DNA of 64,000 nucleotides. It comes from Shigella phage Sf24. The notes beneath the pieces are model-generated. The model did not search any database and was not told the DNA's origin. It saw only the letters and a list, made by a program, of their open reading frames with translations. Position numbers and translations under genes: made by a program. Positions 15,418 to 20,786 of the stretch are shown one piece after another; position 1 is the stretch's first letter; each line of letters opens with the position of its first letter. The stretch lies in the sequence record MF327008. One strand, 5' to 3'.

Positions 15418-18400
15418 ATGGCTACTTTAAAACAAATACAATTTAAAAGAAGCAAAACTGCAGGTCAACGCCCTGCTGCTTCAGTATTAGCCGAAGGTGA
15501 ATTGGCTATAAACTTAAAAGACCGTACTCTTTTTACTAAAGATGACTCGGGAAATATTATTGATTTAAGCATTTCTGCCGGTGGTAACATTAGTGGAAAT
15601 ATTACTCAAAATGGTGATTATTTACAAAACGGCACGTATAATCTTAATGGAAATCAGTTTGTTTATGCAGGAAAGTATATTGAATTCTTGCCAAAAACTG
15701 CTGGAAATGGTGCTTGGGCAAATCAGCACACAAATAAAGCTCCAATTTTCACCGATTTGAGTTCAACTACTTCAACTTCTGAATATCATCCGCTAATTAA
15801 ACAACGTTATAAAGATGGAACGTTTTCATTAGGGACTTTAGTTTCTGAAGGCTCAATGAAGATACACTATATCGATGAAACTGGCACTTCAAAATATTGG
15901 ACTTTCCGACGTGATGGTGGTTTTGTTGTTGATAGTGGTAGTTTAACTGTTACTGCTGGAAACATATCTGCTTCAGGCAATATTAATTCGGCATCAGGGG
16001 TTGTTTCAGCTCCTCAAATTAATACAAAAACCATTGTTTTAGATACAAAAGCATTTGGACAATATGATTCGCAGTCATTAGTTCAGTATGTTTATCCTGG
16101 CACAGGTGAAACAAACGGTATAAACTATCTTCGTAAAGTTCGCGCAAAATCAGGTGGTACAATTTATCATGAAATAGCTTCAGCTCAAACTGGAAAAAGC
16201 GATGAAATTTCGTGGTGGACTGGAAATACAGCCGTTAATAAACAAATGGGTCTTCGTAATGATGGTGCAATGGTATTACGTCGTTCACTTGCTATTGGCA
16301 CAATTACTACAGATGAAAACGTAAATAACTATGGATCTGCTGGAGCAATGGGAGAAAAATACATTGTTCTTGGAGATGCGTCAACTGGACTAGCTTATAA
16401 AAAGACAGGAGTTTATGACTTAGTTGGTAGTGGTTTATCTGTTGCTTCTATCACTCCCGACAGTTTCCGTAGTACGCGTAAAGCAATTTTTGGACGTTCT
16501 GAAGACCAAGGCGGTACATGGCTTCTTCCTGGTCAAAACGCTGCTCTTCTTTCAGTTCGTACAGATATTGATCAAAATAATAACGGTGATGGTCAAACTC
16601 ATATTGGATATAATAGTAACAGCAAGTTTTATCATTATTTTAGAGGCAGAGGCCGAATGGCTGTTGGAATGGCTGAAGGTCTTATTGTTGAGCCTGGAAT
16701 TTTAGATATTAAAACTGGTTCAAATACTGTTTCTATTAGAGCTGATGGCGGAATTTCATCTACTCAGCGTCTTTCATTGCAGAATGGTATATTTTTATCT
16801 TCTGATGGAAATAACAACGGTATATCGTTTAAAGCTTCTAGCAGTATAGATGGAACTAAAACTCTTAATTGGGATGCTGGTACTCGTGCAGGTCAAAACA
16901 AAAATACAGTAATTTTAAAAGCATGGGGAAATTCATTTAATACAAGTGGTGGAACTGATAGACATACTGTATTTGAAGTTTCTGATTCACAAGGATACTA
17001 CTTTTATGCTCAACGTACTACCCCTGCATCCGGTCAAACAGTAGGTCCTATTAATTTTAAATTTAATGGTACTGTAGAAACCGGTCATATCAATGGATTA
17101 GGTAATATTACTTTATCTGGGGCAGTTATAGCAGATTCTGCTAATATTAAAGGACCGCTAAAAATATCTAATGCTAATACAGCTGATGCTTTTAGAATAT
17201 GGAACGCTGAATATGGAGCCATTTTCCGTCGTTCAGAAACATCATTGCATATTATTCCTACACTTAAAGATGCAGGGGAAAATGGTGGAATAAGTAATCT
17301 TCGCCCATTAAGTATTGATCTTTCAAACGGATTTGTGCAAATGCATCATTCTCTTTCTGTGGGGAATACAGTAAGAACGAATGGATTGTTTGCTGTGGAT
17401 ACTTCAGCTGCTCTTGTTGCAATTAACAGTCACTCTCGTGTTAATGCTAATTTCAGAATGCAATTAGGACAATCATCTTATATTGATGCTGAATGTACTG
17501 ACGCTGTGCGCCCTGCTGGAGCCGGTTCTTTTGCTTCGCAAAATAACGAAAACGTCCGTGCCCCATTCTATATGAATATAGATAGAACTGATACAAGCAC
17601 TTATGTTCCTATTGTGAAACAAAGATACGTGCAAAATAATAGTTGCTATTCTATTGGTACTTTAATTAATGGTGGTAACTTTAGAGTTCATTATCATGAA
17701 GGTGGCGATGGTAGTTCTACAGGCGTAGTTATAAAAGATTTAGGATGGGAATTTAATAAAAACGGTGATTTTTATTCTCCTGGTAAATTAGGCGCTGGAA
17801 ATATTAGAATAGGTACTGATGGTAATATCACGGGTGGTTCTGGTAACTTTGCTAACTTGAATACAACTTTAAACCGTAAAGTTAATTCTGGTTTTATTAC
17901 TTATGGAGCAACTGCAGGTTGGTACAAGTTTGCAACAGTAACAATGCCTCAAGCTACATCAACCGTTTCAATTACAGTCACTGGCGGAAATGGATTTAAT
18001 TCTGGATCATTTAATCAGTGCGCAATTTCTGAAATTGTTCTTCGTACAGGAAACAATAATCCTAAAGGATTAAATGCTGTTCTATATAGAAGAGGACTAA
18101 ATTCATTTAGAGATATTGCTTGGGTTAATACATCTGGTGATACATATGACATTTATGTTAATATGGGAACATATGCTAATCAGTTGATATTTAACTATAG
18201 TTCTGTTGATAATGCCACAGTTCAAATTATTGGCGCATTCAGTTCAGCTCAAAATCCTGTTGATGCATTGCCAGAAACATATGTTAAAGGTCAGGTAGCA
18301 GATGTATTGACTAACTTAGTTGATTCTGGAAAAACGAAGCGTTTTGTTGCTGAATCTGAAATAGCTATTAATAATCAAACTGGATTACGTATTACGAGTA

Positions 18401-19281
18401 ATGGTGATAAATCTGGTTCAAATTCAGTATTATTCAGAAATGATGGATCAGCGTTTTATATTCTTTTAACAGATAAAAACGCAGCAGATGGAAATACGAC
18501 TGCCACAGAAGGAGATTGGAATGGTAAACGTCCTTTCCAAATTAATATGACTTCTGGTGAAGTAACATTCGGAAATAATATTAATATTTATGGAAACGGA
18601 AGCATTACTTGGACAAAAGCCGGAGCAAACCCTAGAAATATGAGAATATTTCATGCAGGTGATGCTTCTCGTGGTAACCGTATTGAAATCGCAGATGATA
18701 CTAATTATATTGCTTACTTTGAAAAAACTCCAGGTGGAGCTAACCGCTTTGTAGTTAATGGTGCTACTGTAGCTGGTGTTAATCAAATGAATTCATTTGG
18801 TATTAACATCAATAACGCGCTTGGTGGAAATAGTATAGCATTTGGTGATAATGACACGGGTATTAAGCAAAACGGCGATGGATTATTAGACATTTATGCG
18901 AATGGTGTGCAAACGTTCCGTTTCCAAAACGGTGATTTGTACTCATATAAAAATATAAATGCCCCAAACGTTTATATTCGTTCTGATATTCGCTTAAAAT
19001 CTAATTTCAAACCTATCGAAAATGCGCTTGATAAAGTTGAAAAACTTACTGGTGTCATTTATGATAAAGCTGAATACATCGGTGGAGAGGCAATTGAAAC
19101 TGAAGCGGGTATTGTGGCTCAAACGTTACAAGACGTTTTACCAGAAGCTGTCCGTGAAACAGAAGACAGCAAGGGTAATAAAATACTCACTGTTTCTTCT
19201 CAAGCCCAGATTGCTCTTCTGGTTGAAGCTGTGAAAACGCTTTCTTCTCGTGTAAAAGAACTTGAATCTAAACTTATGTAA
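15418..19281 (+). CDS. 37: Long tail fibre distal subunit gp37, 1287 aa, with C-terminal intramolecular-chaperone-like domain
   Basis: ORF track; N-terminus [21 protein letters not shown]; C-terminal ~100 aa (RSDIRLKSN...[15 protein letters not shown]...) resemble auto-cleaving chaperone domains of phage fibres. Confidence 0.85.
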
Positions 19282-19282
19282 A

Positions 19283-19310
19283 AGAGGGCTTCGGCCCTCT
19301 AAGGATTTTT
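19283..19310 (+). terminator. CUUCGG-type hairpin between genes 37 and 38 (possible attenuator)
   Basis: AGAGGGC-TTCG-GCCCTCT followed by AAGGATTTTT; T-run is weak. Confidence 0.35.
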
Positions 19311-19311
19311 A

Positions 19312-20097
19312 ATGGCAATTGTAGGTGTTCCTGGCTGGATTGGTGAATCTGCCGTGAATGAAACAGGACAGCGTTGGATGGATGCTGCAATGAGAGCAGT
19401 CCGTGTTTCAGTTCCCGGTTGGATGAGCTCAATGGCCGGACAATCTAAAGAAGTATATTATAGCATTGGTGCTAGTAATTCTTATAATAAAGATACATTA
19501 ATAAACTGGATAAAAGCACAAGGGTCCACGCCTGTTGTTATTACTATTACAGGAAATATCGTTTCTTCATCAGCGGGTCAACCATGTTTAGATTTTCCTA
19601 GTTCATTAACTAACTCATATGTAACGCTTAATATTAATTCGGGTGTACATGTCTGGGGTCGTGGTGGTAATGGCGGAAATAATTCTGCAGGTGGCGCAGG
19701 TGGTACTGCTATAAACAATGCAATAGGAACCAGATTACGTATTAACAACAATGGGGTTATTGCAGGTGGAGGCGGCGGCGGCGGTGGCGGATACTATTCT
19801 CCTTTTTCACAAATGAAATTAACCTTTGGGGGTGGTGGCGGTCGTCCATTTGGTGCTGCTGGCGGGTCTGCTAATATGGAACAGGGCGCTACTGCTGGTA
19901 CTATTTCTGCACCTGGTAAAGGGTCTGTCAATGGTATCTATAATGGCGGGAATGGCGGTGATGCTGGTGCCGCAGGTGGTAAATGTAATATTCGTGGGCA
20001 AGGATCAGAATATAACGGCGGTGCGGCCGGTAAAGCTGTTACTGGTAATGCTCCAACTTGGACTAAGGTTGGTACAATATATGGTTCAAGAGTATAA
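19312..20097 (+). CDS. 38: T2/T6-type receptor-recognising adhesin gp38, 261 aa, glycine-rich motifs
   Basis: ORF track; MAIVGVPGWIG N-terminus; several Gly-rich blocks including a G9 run separated by variable segments. Confidence 0.8.
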   Translation: MAIVGVPGWIGESAVNETGQRWMDAAMRAVRVSVPGWMSSMAGQSKEVYYSIGASNSYNKDTLINWIKAQGSTPVVITITGNIVSSSAGQPCLDFPSSLTNSYVTLNINSGVHVWGRGGNGGNNSAGGAGGTAINNAIGTRLRINNNGVIAGGGGGGGGGYYSPFSQMKLTFGGGGGRPFGAAGGSANMEQGATAGTISAPGKGSVNGIYNGGNGGDAGAAGGKCNIRGQGSEYNGGAAGKAVTGNAPTWTKVGTIYGSRV

Positions 20098-20129: not shown

Positions 20130-20786
20130 ATGGCAGCACCTAGAATATCATTTTCGCCCTCTGATATTCTATTTGGTGTTCTAGATCGCTTGTTCAAAGA
20201 TAACGCTACCGGGAAAGTTCTTGCTTCCCGGGTAGCTGTCGTAATTCTTTTATTTATGATGGCGATTGTTTGGTATAGGGGAGATAGTTTCTTTGAGTAC
20301 TATAAGCAATCAAAGTATGAAACATACAGTGAAATTATTGAAAAGGAAAGAAATGCACGCTTTGAATCTGTCGCCCTGGAACAACTCCAGATAGTTCATA
20401 TATCATCTGAGGCAGACTTTAGTGCGGTGTATTCTTTCCGCCCTAAAAACTTAAACTATTTTGTTGATATTATAGCATACGAAGGAAGATTACCTTCAAC
20501 AATAACTGAAAAATCACTTGGAGGATATCCTGTTGATAAAACTATGGATGAATATATAGTTCATTTAAATGGACGTCATTATTATTCTGACTCAAAATTT
20601 GCTTTTTTACCAACTAAAAAGCCTACTCCCGAAATAAACTACATGTACAGTTGTCCATATTTTAATTTGGATAATATCTATGCTGGAACGATAACCATGT
20701 ACTGGTATAGAAATGATCATATAAGTAATGACCGCCTTGAATCAATATGCGCTCAGGCGGCCAGAATATTAGGAAGGGCTAAATAA
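20130..20786 (+). CDS. t: Holin T, 218 aa
   Basis: ORF track; matches T4 holin T in sequence and length as recalled; single N-terminal TM segment. Confidence 0.9.
   Translation: MAAPRISFSPSDILFGVLDRLFKDNATGKVLASRVAVVILLFMMAIVWYRGDSFFEYYKQSKYETYSEIIEKERNARFESVALEQLQIVHISSEADFSAVYSFRPKNLNYFVDIIAYEGRLPSTITEKSLGGYPVDKTMDEYIVHLNGRHYYSDSKFAFLPTKKPTPEINYMYSCPYFNLDNIYAGTITMYWYRNDHISNDRLESICAQAARILGRAK

Follow-up and report, generated by a model that had tools for sequence, protein, structure and literature searches.

A recombinant gp38 tail fibre tip adhesin of the T2/T6 type in Shigella phage Sf24, with Tsx as its probable receptor

The stretch of Shigella phage Sf24 DNA analysed here (64,000 nucleotides, sequence record MF327008; called the window below) carries on its + strand gene 37 (15418..19281), gene 38 (19312..20097) and the holin gene t (20130..20786). 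Gene 37 was identified from its open reading frame, Pfam matches and the annotation of homologues as the distal long tail fibre subunit, a protein of 1287 aa whose trimer would be capped by gp38. Gene 38 begins 30 nt after gene 37 and ends 32 nt before t, which was recognised by its match to Phage_holin_T (E 5.4e-116). Beyond t, on the opposite strand, lie homologues of asiA, arn and motA, as in T4, T2, T6 and the BASEL phages, and the gene order 37-38-t-asiA matches that of T2, T6 and eight BASEL phages. A gene 38 immediately behind gene 37 is canonical for Tequatrovirus and Mosigvirus. No tRNA genes turned up when the window was scanned for them.

Genes 37 and 38 are separated by a GC-rich hairpin (19283..19300, +) of 7 bp closed by a UUCG tetraloop, AGAGGGC-UUCG-GCCCUCU, which sits 1 nt past the gene 37 stop and immediately ahead of the ribosome-binding site of gene 38, where the Shine-Dalgarno sequence AAGGA occupies 19301-19305 (+). 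Its minimum free energy is -13.4 kcal/mol (z -2.07) and it gave a terminator-like match. Hairpins stand in the same place in T4, T6, Bas35 and Bas38 with other stem sequences, reflecting compensatory changes. Presumably it belongs with the stable C(UUCG)G intercistronic hairpins familiar from T4, and it might serve to stabilise the mRNA or to bring about partial termination. Apart from this intergenic hairpin, a scan for sigma-70 promoters and terminators around gene 38 returned counts that were not above those of shuffled sequence.

The gene 38 reading frame is intact, with an ATG start and 261 codons followed by a stop. Its product is markedly two-sided in composition, glycine making up 32% of aa 113-261 compared with 10% of aa 1-112, and the glycine-rich half of the gene reaches 49% GC against 34.9% across the whole window. 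Two Pfam families cover the protein almost end to end, each over the full length of its profile and each well beyond the curated cut-off of 25 bits: Gp38_N (PF21721) at aa 1-42 (E 8.2e-18, 64.6 bits, profile positions 1-40 of 40) and GP38 (PF05268) at aa 47-261 (E 1.3e-71, 241.3 bits, profile positions 1-218 of 218). Among proteins of known structure, the gp38 of phage S16 (PDB 6F45_D) aligns with aa 8-259 at 46% identity over 242 residues (E 1.6e-48), and the receptor-binding domain of PP01 gp38 (PDB 9V85) matches with E 8.4e-33. By tblastn, homologues were found in 757 of 50,697 phage records; about 25-27 of these encode a gp38 at least 95% identical to ours, the best at 99.6%, and nearly all carriers of such near-identical proteins (95-99.6%) are Tequatrovirus phages infecting E. 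coli or Shigella. Judged by these matches, gene 38 is a full-length member of the family of T2/T6/S16-type tail fibre tip adhesins, and since the GP38 profile scores 241 bits over its entire length, the resemblance of its glycine runs to those of the family is read as homology and not chance. An earlier note, made from the letters of the window, had proposed precisely this assignment for a 261-aa protein with several glycine-rich blocks. Both the observation and its interpretation in that note are borne out, save for two corrections given below, on HVS1 and on the receptor.

To place the domains, we aligned 13 gp38 proteins, namely the window protein and those of phages whose receptors are known: T2, T6, seven BASEL phages, S16, PP01 and Bas39. 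The published design of gp38 has five glycine-rich motifs (GRMs) and four hypervariable segments (HVSs) in a fixed order (Trojet 2011), and this layout is reproduced in the window protein, with GRM1 to GRM5 in sequence and HVS1 to HVS4 between them. The N-terminal attachment domain, which would dock on the gp37 trimer's tip, corresponds to the Gp38_N match (aa 1-42, 19312..19437, +) and belongs to the T2 class of alleles. Tryptophans W9, W22 and W37 are invariant in all 12 sequences, that of S16 among them, in which the alignment reaches this domain, and are the equivalents of the anchoring tryptophans of S16 gp38, where three Trp residues insert into pockets of gp37 (PMC6851490). The first part of the central beta-helix follows (aa 43-115, 19438..19656, +), assigned by its alignment to the beta-helix region of S16 gp38.

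From there to the C-terminus, all on the + strand, conserved and variable blocks alternate. GRM1, GRGGNGGNNSAGGAGG (aa 116-131, 19657..19704), takes in the counterpart of PP01 loop A (aa 122-126) and leads into HVS1, TAINNAIGTRLRINNNGVIA (aa 132-151, 19705..19764), which contains A137, a glycine in Bas39 and JK38. GRM2, GGGGGGGGG (aa 152-160, 19765..19791), was located by motif search and alignment; it is a run of nine consecutive glycines equivalent to polyglycine-II (PGII) helix 3 of S16 (151-GGGGGGGG-158; PMC6851490). HVS2, YYSPFSQMKLTF (aa 161-172, 19792..19827), is of the T6/Tsx class and is the equivalent of PP01 receptor loop B. Next come GRM3, GGGGGRPFGAAGG (aa 173-185, 19828..19866), and HVS3, SANMEQGATAGTISAPGKGSVNGIYN (aa 186-211, 19867..19944), the latter holding the segments that correspond to loops C and D of PP01, then GRM4, GGNGGDAGAAGG (aa 212-223, 19945..19980), again delimited by motif search and alignment, and HVS4, KCNIRGQGSEYN (aa 224-235, 19981..20016), which corresponds to PP01 loop E. 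The series closes with GRM5, GGAAG (aa 236-240), and a conserved C-terminal strand returning to the beta-helix (together 20017..20094); the conserved C-terminal motif of gp38 was already remarked by Trojet 2011. The four glycine blocks quoted in the earlier note are present exactly as written there, and the fifth, GGAAG, had escaped it.

Alignment with T2, T6 and other gp38 adhesins, the check which that note recommended, thus delimited conserved and variable blocks across the 13 sequences. Mean column entropy was 1.37-1.63 bits in HVS2-4 as against 0.36-0.75 bits in GRM1-4; GRM2 and GRM3 stood at 0.4 bits, and GRM3, at 0.36 bits, was the lowest of all regions. HVS1 proved only moderately variable in this sample (0.71 bits), so that the notion of variable segments between the glycine motifs holds for HVS2-4 and less so for HVS1. 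The five receptor loops of the PP01 crystal structure map to aa 122-126, 162-171, 185-190, 206-210 and 226-233 of the window protein, that is, to GRM1, HVS2, both ends of HVS3, and HVS4.

For the fold itself, a single-sequence AlphaFold2 model reached a mean pLDDT of only 30.2 and was discarded as unusable. By homology to the two crystal structures, in particular the 46% identity over 242 residues to 6F45_D, the window protein would adopt three domains with a polyglycine-II sandwich.

The partner protein fits an adhesin of this kind. Besides a Gp34_trimer match, gp37 carries a Peptidase_S74 match at aa 1189-1246, and over its C-terminal 287 aa it aligns with chain 6F45_A, the gp37 of S16 (E 5.5e-12). 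The Peptidase_S74 match and an SD.R.K motif mark an intramolecular chaperone domain at its C-terminus (aa 1190-1287, 18985..19278, +), and autocleavage is likely after S1189, in the motif IRS|DIRLK at S1189/D1190, with the 98-aa domain then discarded; both the cleavage and its position are predicted from the sequence. This domain is 98% identical to that of T2, 99% to that of Bas39 and 37% to that of T6. The gp37 proteins of T2 and T6 also have a Peptidase_S74 chaperone domain, whereas T4 gp37 lacks one and has a Collar domain instead. On the combined evidence of the S74 match, the 6F45_A match and the SDIRLK motif, the gp37 of the window has a blunt tip of the S16/T2 type with a removable chaperone domain, not the receptor-binding tip of T4. 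A gp37 that brings its own chaperone domain explains why a T2-type system can do without a chaperone of the T4 gp38 type. Among phages whose gp38 and gp37 tip are nearly alike, gp37 ranges widely in length, with 1260 aa in Bas39, 1287 in the window, 1302 in Bas45, 1312 in Bas43 and 1341 in T2, and of 721 phage records no more than 7 match 80% or more of the 8-kb region. The shaft of the fibre, too, is a mosaic.

Could gp38 nevertheless serve solely as an assembly chaperone for gp37 and be missing from the virion, as in T4? The idea draws on an identical gene name and an identical position between 37 and t. T4 gene 38 (NC_000866 159649..160200) is 552 nt long and encodes 183 aa, the length given in the earlier note, and its product has no Pfam match. 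A BLASTP comparison of the window protein with T4 gp38 (NP_049864) gave E=20 over 23 residues, which is no detectable similarity, and a tblastn search with T4 gp38 against the whole window had a best E of 4.3, so no T4-type gp38 is encoded there. The RefSeq note on T4 gene 38 itself describes the "gp38" of the T2 subfamily as an unrelated adhesin. The intramolecular chaperone domain of the window gp37 further weighs against such a role, as does the S16 homologue, which was crystallised on the gp37 tip (6F45). T6 phages with amber mutations in gene 38 have virions of normal morphology that have lost adsorption (Trojet 2011), in agreement with a gp37 that is chaperone-independent. By analogy with these homologues, for which the S16 gp37-gp38 structure and the T6 amber phenotype place the protein at the fibre tip, gp38 of the window would be a virion component, and we consider a purely chaperone function extremely improbable.

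Just as little weight is given to the idea that gene 38 is a decayed, non-functional copy whose glycine runs are low-complexity noise. Its one attraction is the odd composition, 32% glycine and 49% GC within a window of 35% GC. Against this stand the intact full-length frame, the coverage of both complete Pfam profiles and the conservation of all GRMs; moreover, gene 38 differs from its counterparts in JK38 and Bas39 at 49-56 nucleotides while the proteins differ by just 5 aa, a pattern that speaks for purifying selection.

With the adhesin assignment in place, the allele itself is by sequence comparison a recombinant that joins a T2-class attachment module to a T6-class specificity module. 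Over residues 1-42 identity reaches 98% with T2 as against 67% with T6, and at the DNA level nt 1-150 of the gene are 85-95% T2-like. By comparison, most of nt 450-730 is 73-88% T6-like and 37-60% T2-like, the switch falling between about aa 115 and 150, from GRM1 to GRM2. That a T2-class attachment module should accompany a T2-class gp37 tip is to be expected if one has to fit the other. The combination is not new, as Bas39, JK38 and some 25 further phages already have it.

A second, smaller layer of mosaicism was seen within the gene. Nucleotides 180-540 of gene 38 (window 19490-19850) form a segment of divergent ancestry, whose differences are mostly synonymous. It holds 46-53 of the 49-56 nucleotides at which the gene departs from JK38 and Bas39, and this clustering points to a short recombinant stretch within gene 38. 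Phage PinkRuby is 98.7% identical to the window over the surrounding 8 kb and only 91.7% within gene 38. Taken together, the patch and the drop in PinkRuby have the signature of typical patchwork recombination under purifying selection.

That the variable segments determine host range, as the earlier note supposed, agrees with the literature, which places receptor choice there. Replacing the part of gp38 that begins at HVS2 suffices to change the porin used (bioRxiv 10.64898/2026.04.02.716166), nearly all Tsx-binding gp38 proteins have one common HVS set (Trojet 2011), and the receptor is predictable from gp38 phylogeny (Lutz 2025). We compared HVS2, HVS3 and HVS4 of the window protein with those of phages of assigned receptor. 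Taken together, the three segments are 100% identical to those of Bas39, which is Tsx-dependent (BASEL supplementary Table S5, PMC8594841), and likewise 100% identical to those of JK38, which was assigned Tsx/Kdo by RB-TnSeq (bioRxiv 10.64898/2026.04.02.716166). Other Tsx binders follow, with 86% for Bas36 and Bas37, 84% for Bas35 and 78% for T6. Identity then falls to 56% for Bas45 (OmpA; 84% over the whole protein), 44% for Bas43 (Tsx, bound by another HVS set), 22% for PP01 (OmpC), 20% for S16 (OmpC), 18% for T2 (FadL) and 16% for Bas38 and Bas47 (OmpF). Segment by segment, beside the complete identity to Bas39/JK38, HVS2 is 83-92% identical to T6 and Bas35-37 and 0% to T2; HVS3 is 73-81% identical to T6 and Bas35-37 and 19-35% to the FadL, OmpF and OmpC binders; and for HVS4 the corresponding values are 83-92% and 8-25%. 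Because all three segments are identical to Bas39/JK38 and close to T6, the receptor is very probably Tsx. The mutants suggested in the earlier note for host-range assays (ompF, fadL and ompA) would therefore have passed over the likely receptor.

Two other specificities were considered and set aside. FadL or OmpF came into question on account of the 98% T2-like N-terminus and was dropped, as HVS2-4 are only 18% identical to T2. OmpA as the primary receptor came into question through Bas45, the next closest allele, and was dropped on 25% identity in HVS2 and 58% in HVS4, compared with 100% to Tsx-verified phages.

The correspondence between segments and receptors is not perfectly simple. Bas43 (TadeuszReichstein; gp38 at L010:5753-6541) is Tsx-dependent according to BASEL Table S5, and HVS4 of its gp38 is only 25% identical to the T6/Bas39 class. 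With 44% identity over HVS2-4, this protein implies that at least two distinct HVS sets bind Tsx, and hence that the mapping of HVS to receptor is not one-to-one. A single substitution in an HVS can also switch the receptor, as Q206L did in RB68 (OmpF to OmpW; bioRxiv 10.64898/2026.04.02.716166).

It is in this light that a receptor other than Tsx alone should be weighed, be it OmpA or, after the pattern of phage PST, Tsx together with OmpA or LPS, brought about by the five substitutions that lie outside HVS2-4 or by effects of the gp37 context. PST shows that HVS substitutions can add receptors: three of its HVS residues differ from T6, recognition of OmpA and of Yersinia was gained, and the N-terminal part of gp38 may contribute to or modulate specificity (Trojet 2011). 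Type 1 OmpA adhesins are phylogenetically near the Tsx adhesins (PMC12032242), Bas45, an OmpA phage, carries the next most similar allele, and one of the five residues, A137, sits in HVS1. However, HVS2-4, which have been shown to carry porin specificity, do not differ at all from those of two Tsx-verified phages. Residues 167/168 of HVS2, the positions altered in the PST host-range variant (Trojet 2011), are Q and M in the window protein, as in T6, where PST has R and I; T2 likewise has A137, which lies in a weakly variable segment. We consequently regard a departure from Tsx alone as improbable. Rather less probable still is the particular route by which the patch S86/A88/Q90/S102/A137, encoded within the segment of divergent ancestry (nt 180-540), could alter loop presentation and so extend receptor use past Tsx or redirect it, say to OmpA or a variant Tsx; if true, it would mean that host-range determinants exist outside HVS2-4.

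Our preferred reading, to which we assign a probability of roughly 90%, is that gp38 of the window is a Tequatrovirus adhesin that caps the gp37 trimer as a monomer, binds Tsx and is encoded by a T2/T6 recombinant allele. The mechanism is drawn by homology to S16, PP01, T2 and T6. On every long tail fibre, a single gp38 would cap the tip that the gp37 trimer forms. Folding of gp37 would be assisted by the intramolecular chaperone domain at its own C-terminus, which would then be cut off after about S1189, and aa 1-42 of gp38 would dock on the tip so exposed by way of W9, W22 and W37. The remainder of gp38 would form the beta-helix, on which the five GRMs would build the polyglycine-II sandwich and the HVSs would serve as distal loops contacting an outer-membrane protein, most probably the nucleoside channel Tsx.

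Gene 38 of Sf24 is accordingly an ordinary and correctly identified gene of a kind already known, and no discovery. The modularity of GRMs and HVSs, the structure and the receptor logic of gp38 adhesins have been described since 1987 and have lately been mapped at scale, and our analysis adds nothing to the understanding of these adhesins in general. Its practical value lies in the right label, "tail fibre tip adhesin gp38" and not "assembly catalyst". Several GenBank homologues are still named "distal long tail fiber assembly catalyst" or "tail assembly protein", while others are "tail fiber adhesin"; the outdated labels carry the function of T4 gp38 over onto an unrelated protein. The predicted use of Tsx would be of service in the design of phage cocktails and in anticipating resistance through loss of tsx.

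Among known systems, the closest record found is that of Escherichia phage SholemSchwarzbard (PP925840), whose gp38 is 99.6% identical in protein and 97.8% in nucleotide sequence and differs by one substitution, K169R in HVS2, the arginine being found in T6 and Bas35-37 as well. Bas39 (Escherichia phage FriedrichMiescher, MZ501066) and Shigella phage JK38 (MK962755) encode gp38 proteins of 261 aa that are identical to each other and 98.1% identical to that of the window (92.8-93.7% for the gene), and share with it HVS2-4, GRM1-5, the gene order and the T2-class gp37 tip with its chaperone domain. They are set apart by S86Q, A88T, Q90V and S102A in the beta-helix and A137G in HVS1.

T6 and T2 each resemble a different part of the protein. 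T6 gp38 (AP018814), the classical Tsx binder, is of the same family and architecture, with an identical GRM2 and with 83%, 73% and 83% identity in HVS2, HVS3 and HVS4, but its N-terminal half is of another allele class (67% over aa 1-42, 34% over aa 43-115) and its gp37 tip is different too, as reflected in the 37% identity of the chaperone domains. In AP018814 the annotated T6 gene 38 begins (L003:6711-6722) four codons upstream of the conserved MAVVGVPGW with which the gene opens in all the other phages, which is likely a mis-annotation of the start codon. T2 gp38 (AP018813), a FadL binder of the same family, is the reverse case: its attachment domain and the gp37 chaperone domain are each 98% identical to those of the window, whereas its specificity module differs, with 0%, 23% and 25% identity in HVS2, HVS3 and HVS4. 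The OmpC binders S16 gp38 (Salmonella phage, 6F45) and PP01 gp38 (E. coli phage, 9V85) are alignable over the full length and conserve the three tryptophans, the GRMs and poly-Gly helix 3, but their HVS loops are only 20-22% identical to ours and their receptor is different. T4 gp38, in sharp contrast, has in common with the window protein its gene name and its place between 37 and t; it is an assembly chaperone of 183 aa, unrelated in sequence and not a component of the virion, in a phage whose gp37 itself carries the receptor-binding tip.
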